DNA of 21,272 bases from a virus (lineage: Duplodnaviria > Heunggongvirae > Uroviricota > Caudoviricetes), in IMG/VR virus record IMGVR_UViG_2617270964_000007, positions 1 through 21,272 of that record, one strand, 5' to 3'. Below, piece by piece: positions 12,994-21,180 of this stretch. The translations under genes were made by a program, and so were the position numbers. The notes under the pieces were generated by a model. The model was not told the origin of the DNA and did no database searches. It was given only the letters and a program-made list of their open reading frames with translations. Positions within the stretch are counted from its first letter, which is position 1. The number at the start of each line of letters is the position of its first letter.

Positions 12994-13434
12994 ATGAAAA
13001 AACTAACCTTTGAAATTCGATCTCCAGCACATCAGCAAAACGCTATTCACGCAGTACAGCAAATCCTTCCAGACCCAACCAAACCAATCGTAGTAACCAT
13101 TCAGGAACGCAACCGCAGCTTAGACCAGAATAGAAAGCTTTGGGCTTGCCTTGGTGACGTCTCTCGTCAGGTTGAATGGCATGGTCGCTGGCTGGATGCA
13201 GAAAGCTGGAAGTGTGTGTTTACCGCAGCATTAAAGCAGCAGGACGTTGTTCCTAACCTTGCCGGGAATGGCTTTGTGGTAATAGGCCAGTCAACCAGCA
13301 GGATGCGTGTAGGCGAATTTGCGGAGCTATTAGAGCTTATACAGGCATTCGGTACAGAGCGTGGCGTTAAGTGGTCAGACGAAGCGCGACTGGCTCTCGA
13401 ATGGAAAGCGCGATGGGGAGATCGGGCAGCATGA
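12994..13434 (+). CDS. ninB: NinB (Orf-family recombination mediator), 146 aa
   Basis: ATG at 12994; the track ORF begins 18 nt upstream at a different start. The translation MKKLTFEIRSPAHQQNAIHAVQQILPD… matches lambda NinB as I recall it. Confidence 0.85.
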   Translation: MKKLTFEIRSPAHQQNAIHAVQQILPDPTKPIVVTIQERNRSLDQNRKLWACLGDVSRQVEWHGRWLDAESWKCVFTAALKQQDVVPNLAGNGFVVIGQSTSRMRVGEFAELLELIQAFGTERGVKWSDEARLALEWKARWGDRAA

Positions 13435-13958
13435 CTATCAAATCAAATACGCCAGCACACGACAAGGACTGCTGGCAAACGCCGCTTTGGCTTTTTGATG
13501 CACTGGATATTGAGTTTGGATTCTGGCTGGATTCGGCAGCGAGCGACAAAAATGCTCTGTGCGCTCACTGGCTAACTGAGGCCGACGATGCGCTCAATTC
13601 TGAGTGGGTAAGCCACGGTGCAATCTGGAATAACCCACCGTACAGCAATATCAGGCCGTGGGTGGAAAAAGCCGCTGAGCAGTGCATACAACAGCGACAG
13701 ACGGTAGTGATGCTTGTGCCAGAGGATATGTCTGTCGGATGGTTCAGCAAGGCTCTGGAGAGTGTTGACGAAGTTCGCATTATCACTGATGGACGGATTA
13801 ATTTTATCGAACCATCGACGGGGCTGGAGAAGAAGGGAAACAGCAAAGGCTCCATGCTGCTGATTTGGCGACCGTTCATCAGTCCTCGACGGATGTTTAC
13901 TACCGTATCCAAAGCGGCATTGATGGCGATCGGGCAGGGTGTCAGGAGGGCTGCATGA
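13431..13958 (+). CDS. Phage DNA N6-adenine methyltransferase (Dam family, NPPY motif)
   Basis: ATG at 13431 overlaps the ninB stop. It contains the catalytic motif WNNPPYS and the conserved WQTP motif near the N-terminus, typical of the phage Dam-family MTases. It sits between ninB and ninC, which are adjacent in lambda. Confidence 0.75.
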   Translation: MTIKSNTPAHDKDCWQTPLWLFDALDIEFGFWLDSAASDKNALCAHWLTEADDALNSEWVSHGAIWNNPPYSNIRPWVEKAAEQCIQQRQTVVMLVPEDMSVGWFSKALESVDEVRIITDGRINFIEPSTGLEKKGNSKGSMLLIWRPFISPRRMFTTVSKAALMAIGQGVRRAA

Positions 13959-14800
13959 TAAATGTCGTTAGTTTCTCAGGTGGCAGGACGTCAGCATATT
14001 TGCTCTGGCTAATGGAGCAAAAGCGACAGGCAGGTGAAGACGTGCATTACGTTTTCATGGATACAGGGGCAGAGCACCCTAAAACATATGAGTTCATCCG
14101 AAATATCGTCAGTAACTGGAAAATAGACTTACATTGCCTTCGTGTAATACCTAATCCAGAAATGGGGAAGGCCAGTAGTTATGAAGAGATAGGTGACAAT
14201 GATATTGGTCCAGATCTTATACCGTGGAAAAGGATGTTAAATAAATACGGACATCCATATATCGGCGGTGCGTTCTGTACCGACAGAATGAAGTCTGTTC
14301 CATTCACCAAATATTGTCAGGAAAAGTTTGGGAAAGGAAATTACATCACATGGCTTGGCATTCGCACAGATGAACCAAACAGGCTTAAAAGGGCTAATGG
14401 TTTTCGGTACCTGGCTGATATAAGCGATTTTGACAAACAGGATGTGCTTGATTGGTGGAGTGGGCAGAAGTTTGATCTTGGCATACAGGAGCATCTTGGT
14501 AATTGTGTTTTCTGTATAAAAAAAAGTATGCAAAAGGTTGCGCTGGCAGCCATGGATGAGCCAGAACTTGCAGATGCATTTATCAACATCCTTGATACAG
14601 AAATAAAAACAGGAAAGGAACCGGTTATGTATCGAGGGAATAATACACTTAAATCACTGATTGCCTTGTTTAGTGATATATCAAGAGATGAGTTAGCCTC
14701 AAGAATGACATCAATGCGACAGTATGATTCAGGTTCGTGTTCTGAATCATGTGAAGCATTTTCATGTCAGCTTGGATTTAATTTTGAGGATGCGGCATGA
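13955..14800 (+). CDS. ninC: NinC, PAPS-reductase-like PP-loop protein, 281 aa
   Basis: ATG at 13955 with AGGAGG upstream. PP-loop motif SFSGGRTS near the N-terminus and cysteine clusters CVFC and [10 protein letters not shown] near the C-terminus. The N-terminus [20 protein letters not shown] resembles lambda NinC as I recall. Confidence 0.8.
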
Positions 14801-14973
14801 GACGACAGCGACGAAGCATCACCGACATCATCTGCGAAAACTGCAAATACCTTCCAACGAAACGCTCCAGAAATAAACGCAAGCCAATCCCAAAAGAATC
14901 TGACGTAAAAACCTTCAATTACACGGCTCACCTGTGGGATATCCGGTGGCTAAGACATCGTGCGAGGAAATGA
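14797..14973 (+). CDS. ninD: NinD-like small protein with CxxC motif, 58 aa
   Basis: ATG overlaps the ninC stop (ATGA). The translation [58 protein letters not shown] is below the 60-aa track threshold and matches lambda NinD as I recall. Confidence 0.6.
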
Positions 14974-15335: not shown

Positions 15336-15515
15336 ATGCTTAGCCCATCCCAATCCATTCAATACCAGAAAGAAAGCGTCGAGCGAGCTTTAACGTGCGC
15401 TAAATGCGGTCAGAAGCTGCATGTGCTGGAAGTTCACGTGTGTGAGCACTGCTGCGCAGAACTGATGAGCGATCCGAATAGCTCAATGTACGAGGAAGAA
15501 GACGATGGTGATTAG
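15336..15515 (+). CDS. ninF: NinF-like small cysteine-rich protein, 59 aa
   Basis: The translation MLSPSQSIQYQKESVERALTCAKCGQKLHVLEVHVCEHCCAELMSDPNSSMYEEEDDGD carries CxxC…CxxCC (a zinc-ribbon-like pattern) and resembles lambda NinF as I recall. It falls below the track length cutoff. Confidence 0.6.
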   Translation: MLSPSQSIQYQKESVERALTCAKCGQKLHVLEVHVCEHCCAELMSDPNSSMYEEEDDGD

Positions 15516-15897
15516 CCGATACGGAAAAATAACGTTTAAACATTTTCAAGACAATCCAACATGGGCTGCTGCGGCTGGATATGACTTTAATTATTTTGAT
15601 TGTCTGTCAGTCGCATGTATTGCAACTACCAATGTTGCTAACAACATAATCGATGAATTCTTGGATTTTCCAGACTATCAGGTCAGAGAGTTGCCTGCAT
15701 TTTTTGTGAAAGTATCTGTTGCTACAGCTCTGTTATTTATTTTGTTATTCGCATATCCATTGCTTGCCGTATTTGTTTATGTGAGATGCAAGCACTCACA
15801 AAATGAATACACCGGAGAGCATACCGATATTACCAGCCAAAATATGCGAGTGTGGTTGAGGAGATGCCAAGAGAAATGGGGGAGAAGTCATGGCTAA
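15505..15897 (+). CDS. Hypothetical membrane protein, 130 aa, one predicted transmembrane helix, moron-like
   Basis: ATG at 15505 overlaps the ninF stop, with GAGGAAG upstream. The hydrophobic segment FFVKVSVATALLFILLFAYPLLAVFVYV is followed by a basic stretch. The gene is AT-rich and has no counterpart in the lambda nin region as I recall it. Confidence 0.5.
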   Translation: MVISRYGKITFKHFQDNPTWAAAAGYDFNYFDCLSVACIATTNVANNIIDEFLDFPDYQVRELPAFFVKVSVATALLFILLFAYPLLAVFVYVRCKHSQNEYTGEHTDITSQNMRVWLRRCQEKWGRSHG

Positions 15898-16180
15898 CCT
15901 ACGCAAAGAAGCGCGCGGAAGAGAATGCCAGGTACGTATTTACGGCATATGCAATGGAAATCCTGAAACTACAGTTCTGGCACATTACCGGATGGCTGGA
16001 ATTTGCGGAACGGGAATGAAACCTGACGACCTGATCGGCGCATGGGCTTGTAGTGACTGCCACGCGGAGATCGACCGACGCACAAGGATTCTCGACAACA
16101 AAGACGCCAGACTTTACCACCTCGAAGGCGTGATCAGGACGCAGGCGATACTGCTGAAGGAGGGGAAGATTAAGTCATGA
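15890..16180 (+). CDS. DUF1364 / YbcO-like putative metal-binding nuclease, 96 aa
   Basis: Cys/His pattern C-x7-C…H…C…C-x3-C-x2-H as in DLP12 YbcO. It lies immediately upstream of rusA, as ybcO does in DLP12. Confidence 0.7.
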   Translation: MANLRKEARGRECQVRIYGICNGNPETTVLAHYRMAGICGTGMKPDDLIGAWACSDCHAEIDRRTRILDNKDARLYHLEGVIRTQAILLKEGKIKS

Positions 16181-16539
16181 ACGAATATCAGTTTGTGCTT
16201 CCATACCCGCCGTCGGTGAACACCTACTGGCGAAGACGGGGAAGCCAATACCACATCAGCGATAAAGGCCAGAAATACCGAAAAGACGTTCAGCAAATCA
16301 TCCGCCAACTTAAGTTAGACATTTTCACCAAATCACGACTCCGCATCAAAGTCATCGCAGACGTTCCAGACTCCCGCCGCCGCGACCTCGACAACATCCT
16401 GAAAGGTTTACTCGACTCCCTTATCCACGCCGGATTTGCGGAAGACGACGAGCAATTCGATGACATTCGCGTAATTCGTGGTGTGAAAGTACCAGGCGGA
16501 CGGCTTGGAATAAAAATCACCGAACTGGAGAACGTATGA
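16177..16539 (+). CDS. rusA: RusA-family Holliday junction resolvase (NinG-position endonuclease), 120 aa
   Basis: Conserved RusA segments: PPSVNTYW near the N-terminus, the catalytic-aspartate region DVPDSRRRDLDNILKGLLDSL, and the GGRLGIKITEL C-terminus. Confidence 0.85.
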   Translation: MNEYQFVLPYPPSVNTYWRRRGSQYHISDKGQKYRKDVQQIIRQLKLDIFTKSRLRIKVIADVPDSRRRDLDNILKGLLDSLIHAGFAEDDEQFDDIRVIRGVKVPGGRLGIKITELENV

Positions 16540-20676: not shown

Positions 20677-21180
20677 TTATTGATAGTGTTTTATGTTCAG
20701 ATAATGCCCGATGACTTTGTCATGCAGCTCCACCGATTTTGAGAACGACAGCGACTTCCGTCCCAGCCGTGCCAGGTGCTGCCTCAGATTCAGGTTATGC
20801 CGCTCAATTCGCTGCGTATATCGCTTGCTGATTACGTGCAGCTTTCCCTTCAGGCGGGATTCATACAGCGGCCAGCCATCCGTCATCCATATCACCACGT
20901 CAAAGGGTGACAGCAGGCTCATAAGACGCCCCAGCGTCGCCATAGTGCGTTCACCGAAAACGTGCGCCACAACTGTCCTCCGTATCCTGTCATACGCGTA
21001 AAACAGCCAGCGCTGACGTGATTTAGCACCGACGTAGCCCCACTGTTCGTCCATTTCCGCGCAGACGATGACGTCACTGCCCGGCTGTATGCGCGAGGTT
21101 ACCGACTGCGGCCTGAGTTTTTTAAATGGCGGAAAATCGTGTTGAGGCCAACGCCCATAATGCGGGCGGTTGCCCGGCAT
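20677..21180 (-). CDS. insB: IS1 transposase InsB reading frame (expressed as the InsAB' fusion by -1 frameshift)
   Basis: The translation …[53 protein letters not shown]… is the IS1 InsB sequence. Confidence 0.88.

Follow-up and report, generated by a model that had tools for sequence, protein, structure and literature searches.

The dam and ninC genes in the nin region

The window, that is the whole stretch of 21,272 nucleotides analyzed here (IMG/VR record IMGVR_UViG_2617270964_000007), stems from a lambdoid E. coli prophage with its integration site at tRNA-Thr (thrW)/proA and carries genes for an integrase, RecT, an S24 repressor, O-like and DnaB replication proteins and Q. The genes of concern lie in the delayed-early nin region of this prophage. 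On the plus strand, ninB (12994-13434; PF05772, E = 2e-54), which encodes an Orf-family recombination mediator, is followed by the gene for an orphan phage Dam-type N6-adenine methyltransferase of 175 amino acids (13431-13958), by ninC for a PP-loop enzyme of 281 amino acids from the PAPS-reductase superfamily (13955-14800) and by ninE (14797-14973; PF05322, E = 7e-44); ninX and ninF belong to the same neighborhood. Adjacent genes share ATGA overlaps, in which the stop codon of ninB overlaps the start of the methylase gene (13431-13434), the stop of the methylase gene overlaps the start of ninC (13955-13958, with an AGGAGG sequence 5 nt upstream) and the stop of ninC overlaps the start of ninE (14797-14800). 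The translational coupling of ninB, the methylase gene and ninC put forward in the initial annotation is thus borne out as far as the overlaps go. The same overlaps recur along the nin chain at 14970, 16177, 16536 and 16721, however, and such coupling is generic to nin genes and not particular to the dam/ninC pair. By itself, this locus is a nin-region mosaic of the ordinary kind, made up of genes that have already been annotated.

The placement of a Dam-family enzyme between ninB and ninC agrees with coordinates and profile scores. The methyltransferase matches PF05869 (Dam) with E = 6.4e-65 and 218.4 bits (cutoff 28.1) over profile positions 1-167 of 169, and the NCBIfam model TIGR01712 (phage_N6A_met) with 265.9 bits (cutoff 97.05). 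These profiles identify it as a true N6-adenine methyltransferase of the phage Dam type. Its catalytic motif IV, read directly as NPPY at residues 68-71 (13632-13643, plus strand) just as initially noted, conforms to the (D/N)PP(Y/F) pattern and aligns with NCPY or NPPY of homologs that are fused to NinC. The protein is 100% identical to the methyltransferase of VT2-Sakai (Stx2 phage VT2-Sakai/933W), an enzyme with the same PF05869 and TIGR01712 assignments and the same position after ninB. For this enzyme, M.EcoVT2Dam from prophage VT2-Sa, GATC has been reported as the target (PMC6602927), so that the adenine of GATC can be taken as the target of the window methylase by virtue of the sequence identity, and motif discovery is not needed. 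The gene order differs: dam is followed directly by ninE in VT2-Sakai and most of its relatives, whereas ninC comes next in the window.

NinC reaches the gathering threshold of PF01507 (PAPS_reduct; E = 1.9e-8, 34.9 bits, cutoff 22.5) and has the adenine-nucleotide alpha-hydrolase fold. The PP-loop, SFSGGRTS at residues 6-13 (13970-13993, plus strand), is an ATP-pyrophosphatase signature of the SGGxxS type; it is intact as originally described, and among 47 NinC homologs with identities down to about 30%, S8 and S13 are invariant and G9 and G10 are conserved in at least 90%. The cysteines are distributed over three regions. C108 (14276-14278, plus strand), situated at the start of a modeled helix spanning residues 107-125, is invariant in two alignments (A1 and A2) and was missed in the initial annotation. 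A CVFC sequence (C184-x2-C187; 14504-14515, plus strand) is embedded in the aligned motif GNCxxCxKK, of which G182, N183, C184, C187 and K190 are invariant in the 47 homologs. These three cysteines are candidate Fe-S ligands. Finally, the sequence contains a ten-residue stretch with C262, C266 and C271 (14738-14767, plus strand), in which the pair C262-x3-C266 within GSCSESCE (14738-14752, plus strand) is well conserved in the same 47 homologs (C266 invariant, C262 in at least 90%) and C271, the last cysteine of AFSC, is not. Of the clustered cysteines, C184, C187, C266 and C262 are thus conserved and C271 is not. Because they are invariant or nearly so in 47 homologs with identities down to about 30%, the PP-loop and cysteine features of NinC are, on the evidence of these alignments, not due to chance.

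The predicted structure of NinC has a pLDDT of 90.3, with residues 258-281 below 50, and the C262/C266 pair resides in this disordered C-terminal tail. This tail is a candidate for a mobile arm bearing a persulfide or nucleophile or, alternatively, for the source of a fourth cluster ligand. In fold comparison the nearest solved structures are APS and PAPS reductases, and the nearest folds are those of Fe-S enzymes. The structural scores of the tRNA enzymes TilS, NcsA and TtuA nearly equal that of APS reductase.

Relation of NinC to named enzyme families

NinC belongs to the family of the lambda NinC protein (PHROG 33262/424; E = 1.8e-110 against PHROG 33262). By tblastn the two proteins are 56.3% identical (residues 1-277), in alignment A1 57%, and both genes occupy the slot after ninB in an ATGA-linked chain, the window ninC lying between ninB/dam and ninE. 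Lambda has no methylase gene between ninB and ninC and continues with ninD, whereas the window has dam before and ninE after ninC. The allele itself is not of the lambda type and is of the type represented in E. coli 042 and in Salmonella phage SE16 (98% identity). Lambda still forms plaques without ninC, a non-essential gene in this phage (PMC10695390).

Among defense-related profiles (PADLOC), NinC is matched best by SspD (E = 2.7e-14), followed by BrxP (6.4e-8) and DndC (5e-4). The SspD match (PDLC02782; 51.5 bits, from a library without curated cutoffs) extends over NinC residues 4-144 and positions 3-122 of the 277 in the profile. NinC resembles these DNA phosphorothioate writers in its N-terminal PP-loop domain, its richness in cysteine and its probable Fe-S nature, but it is phage-borne while they are encoded in host defense islands, and its likeness to SspD is confined to the N-terminal part. 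It is not a DndC equivalog, as the score against TIGR03183 (11.7 bits) falls far below the cutoff of 290.4. Genes for the partners SspA, SspB and SspC are absent from the window, and the operon partners DndA/IscS, DndD and DndE were not found beside ninC, where ninB, dam, ninE, ninX and ninF are the neighbors. DndC and SspD have been described as sulfur-transfer components (PMC12707154).

Curated models for CysH-type reductases give 13.2 bits (TIGR02057, cutoff 254.2), 12.5 bits (TIGR00434, cutoff 165.1) and 16.6 bits (TIGR02055, cutoff 235.3) with NinC. CysH and APS reductase carry a catalytic cysteine in a C-terminal ECGLH motif. The twelve-residue tail sequence of NinC contains GSCSESCE and no ECGLH, and CysH reads SSSFGIQA at the position where NinC has the canonical ATP-type SGGxxS. 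Although some 160-200 residues of CysH and APS reductase (PDB 2goy, 6vpu and 1sur) superpose on NinC, the identity amounts to only 17-20%.

Separate cassettes and fusions of NinC with DNA methyltransferases

Near-identical alleles of the two genes are found in the arrangements ninB-dam-ninE, ninB-ninC-ninE and ninB-dam-ninC-ninE, with ninE as the flank common to all three. The overlap at 13955-13958 is also a cassette boundary, as ninC is present or absent at this point among relatives. The nearest relative of the methylase gene resides in a ninB-dam-ninE context (98% nucleotide identity), that of NinC in a ninB-ninC-ninE context (98% amino acid identity). Phage Sf101 matches in two pieces, such that 2,084 query bases correspond to only 1,242 Sf101 bases, which fits the absence of the 843-nt ninC. 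Within 5,426 E. coli genomes, this ninC allele occurs in 28, and dam is located upstream in 18 of them (64%); the full order ninB-dam-ninC-ninE is accordingly represented by 18 complete E. coli genomes. The dam allele was detected in 1,540 of the 5,426 genomes. Its 2,193 sites, set against roughly 3,556 matches to the nin region, give a baseline of about 62%. In E. coli prophages dam therefore adjoins this ninC with about the same frequency as it adjoins any nin region. Salmonella phage vB_SosS_Oslo (JQ806764) exhibits the same ninB-dam-ninC order with ATGA-type overlaps, the products being annotated as NinB, DNA methyltransferase and NinC. Its NinC is of the lambda type, with 57% identity to that of the window, and is followed by ninD. 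As this is a different cassette, the ninB-dam-ninC arrangement arose independently. Cassettes with ninC can also lie apart from ninB, in the early-left operon, and unrelated phages (Chi-like ones, for instance) have them too.

NinC is in addition found fused to DNA methyltransferases, and clustering of these fusions at 90% identity gives no fewer than 48 groups. Four partner families are confirmed, namely PF05869 Dam and MT-A70 PF05063 (each in both orders), D12 Dam PF02086 and N6_N4_Mtase PF01555, with a C5 methylase as a tentative fifth; the order Dam-NinC is represented by P0126, P0122 and P0281. The fused proteins have kept the PP-loop, the cysteines and NPPY, and beyond DNA methyltransferases no other recurrent fusion partner of NinC was seen. 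The C-terminal domain of a further protein, P0128, contains DPxxG and NPPF motifs and is graded a probable rather than a proven methylase because its Pfam matches are sub-threshold (MTS 14.9 bits, Dam 13.7 bits). Eight of 80 NinC loci in IMG/VR are fusions, and a Dam gene lies within 4 kb in 13; 67 of the 80 are devoid of a PF05869 Dam within this distance. Methylases of the D12 or P0128 type were not found near unfused NinC in the IMG/VR loci by single-sequence phmmer, a search of low sensitivity. In the searchable literature we found no description of NinC fusions to several DNA methyltransferase families.

One of the fused proteins has been studied experimentally. The protein p0018 of Vibrio phage 44E38.1 (QZI91755.1; "Dam methyltransferase with PAPS reductase domain"; Piel et al., 2022) is encoded by a P22-like phage, in an early region that resembles nin. 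Its N-terminal half is 61% identical to residues 1-270 of the window NinC (E = 2e-119), including an identical start of 16 residues, GNCVFCIKK and GSCSESCE, and its Dam half is 38% identical to the window methylase. While p0018 is a single polypeptide of 479 amino acids with the order NinC-Dam and NCPY as motif IV, the window has two separate reading frames that overlap by ATGA, in the order Dam-NinC and with NPPY. In Vibrio crassostreae phages, p0018 is a phage-specific determinant of escape from Dnd, and introduction of p0018 together with p0019, both group-specific genes of these phages, into a sister phage led to infection of a Dnd-positive host lacking a retron defense (10.1101/2021.05.05.442762), a result later cited in the same sense (PMC13551039). 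In this swap two genes went in and two methylases came out at once, and the NinC and Dam halves of p0018 were not separated (10.1101/2021.05.05.442762). With Dnd escape, p0018 is the sole NinC relative with a phenotype, and since this anti-Dnd role is published, NinC can no longer be called wholly unresolved as it was in the initial annotation.

Homologs of p0017, p0019 and p0020 are absent from the window. At other NinC loci p0019 had no match and p0017 a single weak one (34% over 59 residues, in L086); p0019 itself matched only PHROG families of unknown function and no Pfam-like, defense or NCBIfam model. In an AlphaFold2 model of p0018 (pTM 0.59) the linker that joins the two domains, about 40 residues long and including GSCSESCE, is disordered, and inter-domain confidence is low. 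The model lends no support to a fixed interface between Dam and NinC, which is not strong evidence against cooperation.

Possible roles in counter-restriction

The suggestion that methylase and NinC form a DNA-modification module holds in so far as a functional link is indicated by the multi-family fusions and by the Dnd escape linked to the fused ortholog; the pair is not obligate, and its alleles occur separately. In the reading that we prefer, to which we give about an even chance, the locus would contain two separable counter-restriction cassettes, and NinC would act as an SspD/DndC-like ATP-pyrophosphatase and sulfurtransferase on phage DNA. Both cassettes would be independently mobile accessories between ninB and ninE and would be read off the early rightward transcript. 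Going by its identity to a characterized enzyme, the methyltransferase would methylate GATC in replicating phage DNA and thereby protect it from methylation-sensitive restriction. In NinC the ordered residues C108, C184 and C187 would probably hold an Fe-S cluster, while the C262/C266 pair would be carried on the flexible tail. Host cysteine desulfurase would charge either the cluster or the cysteines of the tail with sulfur, and NinC, having activated a site in phage DNA with ATP, would then transfer the sulfur to it. A phosphorothioate-like or other sulfur mark arising in this way could blind phosphorothioate-dependent restriction of the Dnd, Ssp or BREX type 4 kind. That phages repeatedly combine NinC with a methylase, at times in one polypeptide, would be explained by their guarding a common substrate against restriction. 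Several points count against this reading: NinC scores far below the DndC, CysH and APS-reductase cutoffs, its match to SspD is N-terminal only, it occurs without the DndD/E or SspB/C partners required by Dnd and Ssp writers, the tRNA enzymes come structurally close to APS reductase as a match, and the fusion model shows no fixed two-domain arrangement. We also know of no report of sulfur modification in the DNA of lambda, which possesses NinC.

The locus joins a textbook gene, lambda ninC, with the Dnd-escape phenotype of a relative and with fusions to methyltransferases of several families, which renders the question of NinC function directly testable in the best-developed phage-host system. 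It also suggests that "PAPS reductases" of the NinC type, usually filed as auxiliary metabolic genes, may be counter-defense genes.

Two alternatives would tie NinC more closely to its methylase. It could be part of an obligate two-enzyme pathway, which corresponds to the module of the initial annotation. Here the methyltransferase, either itself or by way of its m6A product, would read the sequence or flip the base and so position NinC, and NinC would set a second mark (such as GpsATC or hypermodified adenine) at or next to GATC, neither enzyme alone being sufficient. The recurrence of fusions in either order, each half retaining its catalytic motifs, the adjacency and coupling of the pair in the window and the fused state of the experimentally active Vibrio protein speak for such a pathway, as does the finding that manipulation of Dam and Dnd components redistributed phosphorothioate among sites in a Dnd host (PMC12707154). 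The partners, though, stem from at least four methylase families that differ in chemistry and specificity (N6-adenine classes and possibly C5-cytosine), so that no single methylated product can be the substrate of NinC. Most IMG/VR loci (67 of 80) have no PF05869 Dam nearby, near-identical NinC and Dam alleles are each found alone, and inter-domain confidence in the fusion model is low. Nor are the lambda nin genes around ninC annotated as methyltransferases; to our knowledge lambda encodes no DNA methyltransferase. We consider such a pathway unlikely. NinC could instead be a self-sufficient phage writer of a sulfur mark (phosphorothioate or thio-base) that dispenses with DndD/E or SspB/C and obtains sequence recognition from the fused or coupled methyltransferase, in this case the GATC-specific Dam. 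If this were true, NinC and methylase would amount to a DNA sulfuration system of minimal size, portable and with two domains only, and lambda NinC would gain a function. This proposal seems rather unlikely to us.

Other explanations dispense with DNA modification by NinC. As a mimic of DndC or SspD, the protein might bind DndFGH or Ssp effectors, or it might sequester the persulfide of IscS or DndA. Its resemblance to SspD, BrxP and DndC would suit such an antagonist, the anti-Dnd phenotype comes without a demonstrated DNA product, and other phage anti-Dnd factors target proteins, as exemplified by the kinase JSS1_004 (PMC12345140). Strict conservation of PP-loop and cysteines down to relatives with 30% identity argues for catalysis instead, and the recurring fusions to methylases, which bind and modify DNA, speak for a DNA substrate, which leaves this explanation quite improbable. 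Much the same must be said of an RNA- or nucleotide-directed PP-loop enzyme, be it a tRNA thiolase, a lysidine-synthetase-like protein or an enzyme of the nucleotide pool, for which the methylase neighborhood would merely reflect shared accessory hotspots: NinC lacks an RNA-binding domain, the recurrent fusion partners are DNA methyltransferases only, and the fused ortholog is experimentally linked to anti-Dnd activity. A role as auxiliary metabolic PAPS/APS reductase, in which NinC would stimulate the sulfate assimilation of the host, is what the Pfam and PHROG name "phosphoadenosine phosphosulfate reductase", the PHROG class "moron, auxiliary metabolic gene and host takeover" and the nearest solved folds would imply. 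With scores far under the cutoffs of TIGR02057, TIGR00434 and TIGR02055, SGGxxS where CysH has SSSFG, the GSCSESCE tail and the fusions to DNA methylases, this view is already disfavored and appears extremely improbable. A recombination accessory acting with NinB (Orf) and NinG/Rap is very improbable as well: ninC does have ninB on one side and further nin recombination genes on the other, and one record (H77) is annotated as "NinC recombination protein", but NinC is a PP-loop enzyme with neither a nuclease nor a DNA-annealing fold, and ninC cassettes also reside in the early-left operon and in Chi-like phages. The anti-Dnd factor JSS1_004, a kinase/shutoff protein, bears no relation to NinC.

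Separable dam and ninC genes in a lambdoid prophage

The window covers the left half of a lambdoid E. coli prophage and encodes an integrase, RecT, an S24-type repressor, O-like and DnaB-like replication genes, a nin region, Q, lysis genes and a Rha-like gene. Within the nin region, ninB (12994-13434, +; PF05772) is followed by a gene for a 175-aa methyltransferase (13431-13958, +; PF05869 'Dam', 218 bits; TIGR01712 phage_N6A_met, 266 bits), a gene for a 281-aa NinC (13955-14800, +; PF01507 PAPS_reduct, 34.9 bits; PHROG 33262, E = 1.8e-110) and ninE (14797-14973, +). This gene trio, the NPPY motif of the methyltransferase (residues 68-71) and the PP-loop SFSGGRTS (residues 6-13), the CVFC motif (residues 184-187) and the cysteine-bearing stretch at residues 262-271 of NinC all lie where the initial annotation had placed them. 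RefSeq and GenBank already carry annotations of these genes and of their order. The methyltransferase is 100% identical to a protein of phage VT2-Sakai annotated as dam and is an already characterised enzyme; GATC is stated as the target of M.EcoVT2Dam from prophage VT2-Sa (PMC6602927).

All junctions from ninB through the methylase gene and ninC to ninE are ATGA stop/start overlaps. The overlaps from which a coupling of the methylase to ninB and ninC had been proposed are therefore real, but they are not specific to the pair. Further ones follow along the nin chain at 14970, 16177, 16536 and 16721, so that translational coupling is a general property of nin regions, and it is no evidence that dam and ninC work jointly.

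The dam-ninC pair is in fact separable. The two genes are adjacent in only 8 of 50,697 phage records, namely two copies of phage Oslo, in which the same gene order is built with a lambda-type NinC allele, and six Vibrio phages with fused genes. In Salmonella phage SE16 and the P22-like phages related to it, NinC is 98% identical to that of the window, and ninC directly follows ninB without a methylase gene. DNA about 98% identical to the methylase gene occurs in some 430 phage records, and the dam segment is present in 1,540 of 5,426 complete E. coli genomes, nearly always as ninB-dam-ninE. Near-identical sequences are arranged in E. coli genomes as ninB-dam-ninE (the majority), ninB-ninC-ninE (e.g. 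strains 042 and F11) or ninB-dam-ninC-ninE (18 genomes). The ninC allele of the window is full-length in 28 genomes and preceded by dam in 64% of them; compared with a rough baseline of 62% (dam at ~2,193 of ~3,556 matched nin places), dam is not enriched next to this allele in E. coli genomes.

Conserved features and relatives of NinC

NinC of the window shares 56-57% identity with lambda NinC. In 47 homologues, reaching down to about 30% identity, S8 and S13 of the PP-loop, T37, E40, C108, K113, the G135-R-x-D-E block, G182-N-C184-x-x-C187, K190 and C266 are invariant and C262 is conserved in at least 90%. C271, which had been counted as part of a C-terminal cysteine cluster, is not conserved in this set. 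The AlphaFold2 model is confident (pLDDT 90.3, pTM 0.87), with residues 258-281, bearing C262 and C266, disordered. We infer ATP pyrophosphatase activity for NinC. By analogy with three-cysteine [4Fe-4S] thiolases, its three ordered cysteines would bind a cluster, and the mobile cysteine pair would match the nucleophile arm at the C-terminus of APS/PAPS reductases.

As a CysH protein, NinC scores far below the curated cutoffs (e.g. 13.2 versus 254), and the PP-loop site differs, SGGxxS being kept in NinC whereas CysH has SSSFG. Assignment as DndC likewise fails (11.7 bits versus a cutoff of 290). Among defence-system profiles SspD ranks first (E = 2.7e-14, N-terminal 140 residues), ahead of BrxP and DndC. 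Chain C of PDB entry 21fy, 'PptA' (270 aa), ranks second among the sequence matches to the NinC family profile (E = 6.2e-6); it has FSCGAPSA in place of the PP-loop and may be the closest solved relative. Many homologues carry an insertion of ~40-70 residues right after the conserved DEPxR block, near residue 145 of the window's NinC (loci L006:3001-4041, L053, L054, L059 and L064; cluster-search proteins P0124, P0127 and P0145); it is absent from the window and lambda proteins.

NinC-methylase fusions and evasion of Dnd defence

Gene p0018 of Vibrio crassostreae phage 44E38.1 encodes a 479-aa protein with an N-terminal PAPS-reductase and a C-terminal Dam domain (preprint 10.1101/2021.05.05.442762; Piel et al., 2022). 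Transfer of p0018 and the adjacent p0019 to a sister phage led to efficient infection of a Dnd+ host strain without retron defence (10.1101/2021.05.05.442762), and a paper from 2026 cites the Vibrio work as a case of a phage PAPS reductase aiding Dnd evasion (PMC13551039). The N-terminal half of p0018 is 61% identical to the NinC of the window (E = 2e-119), with the first 16 residues identical and the motifs GNCVFCIKK and GSCSESCE in common, and the C-terminal half shares 38% identity with the methylase. The same two domains form one polypeptide there, whereas in the window they are encoded by two genes in opposite order. The locus is the unfused, reverse-order counterpart of the published anti-Dnd fusion and, with annotated genes and a characterised methylase, therefore joins a known kind. 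The earlier view that the function of NinC is unresolved no longer fully holds, since an anti-Dnd role has been published for the fusion, p0018 being the only NinC relative with a phenotype. The locus makes lambda NinC function directly testable.

A NinC-only query of 1.84 billion cluster representatives gave 1,498 matches; of the top 150, six have a Pfam-confirmed methyltransferase as fusion partner and one more has a probable one. With a Dam-NinC fusion as query, the NinC-methylase fusions found amount to at least 48 clusters (90% identity), originating from prophages of Serratia, Morganella, Erwinia, Pectobacterium, Salmonella, Klebsiella, Yersinia, Pantoea and Shewanella and from Vibrio phages. 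Pfam assigns the partners to PF05869 (NinC-Dam and Dam-NinC, the Dam halves falling into several divergent subgroups), PF02086 (NinC-D12 Dam), PF01555 (NinC-N6_N4_Mtase) and PF05063 (MT-A70-NinC and NinC-MT-A70); a truncated C5-methylase-NinC (PF00145) is tentative. Both fusion orders are present in genome assemblies, the catalytic motifs of both halves are kept, and no recurrent partner other than methylases was seen among the fusions found. No description of this multi-family pattern was found in the searchable literature.

Among 80 viral NinC loci in IMG/VR, eight are fusions, three have Dam directly upstream and two have it ~2 kb downstream; Dam is absent at all 25 of the most distant NinCs. 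In isolate phages, NinC-like genes occur in 539 and Dam-like genes in 1,908 records (union 2,172), and the ~275 records with both, against ~20 expected by chance, are heavily inflated by relatedness, many being near-identical Vibrio phages with the two genes far apart. Fusions also reside outside nin regions: in a Shewanella prophage and another genome assembly (L088:5001-6716, L089:6001-7461) they belong to the early-left operon, with Ead/Ea22 or RecT/Gp157 and the integrase as neighbours, so that the cassette is mobile among hotspots of accessory genes.

NinC probably acts on DNA. The many methylase families and specificities, possibly both C5 and N6, speak against action on one specific methylated product. 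They favour a role on DNA in parallel with the methylases, in which NinC would add another protective modification or counter-measure independent of methylation; cassettes that can stand apart but are at times joined in one gene fit such a second protection. A stricter model, in which the methylase is the targeting subunit for NinC, appears unlikely. AlphaFold2 (37 paired sequences) folds both halves of the Vibrio fusion confidently, with residues 263-302 disordered, and predicts no fixed interface between them (pTM 0.59). As the best-supported mechanism for NinC we take sulfur chemistry on phage DNA, which would be ATP-dependent and mediated by an Fe-S cluster or persulfide, with a presumed sulfur donor and a putative mark, and which would defeat phosphorothioate-dependent restriction.

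Neighbouring genes and prophage boundaries

In eight IMG/VR NinC loci among L026-L036 (e.g. L033:3405-4004), the gene directly upstream encodes an HD-domain protein similar to the 5'-deoxynucleotidase YfbR (24.4 bits, just below the Pfam cutoff of 25.9), a second, nucleotide-related neighbour of NinC. Some NinC-Dam fusion genes adjoin a methylase gene (L061:5828-7573; relatives of L002, MW824392). The 581-aa ORF downstream in L061 is C5-cytosine methyltransferase-like by motifs alone, and the annotation of the matched feature in the Vibrio records is that of a BsuMI-type modification methylase subunit; such genes would jointly make small methylase islands.

In the window, a 130-aa ORF (PHROG 2638; 15505-15897, +) with a hydrophobic, probably membrane-spanning segment and no Pfam match forms an insertion between ninF and YbcO/RusA, overlapping both neighbours. 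The YbcO/RusA pair (15890-16539, +) consists of a putative nuclease (YbcO, PF07102) and a Holliday-junction resolvase (RusA, PF05866). No NinG/Rap-type gene was present among the window ORFs scanned, while phages SE16 and Oslo have NinG. A tRNA-Thr(CGT) gene (1369-1444) lies beside the tyrosine integrase gene, downstream of proA; this junction (1369-2619) is the thrW attachment site and assigns the prophage to the E. coli chromosome. At the other end, an IS1 transposase gene (20680-21180, -; PF03400, E = 1e-77) comes right after the Rha/ORF11CD3-type gene, and the prophage may be interrupted or truncated at this IS1 copy.
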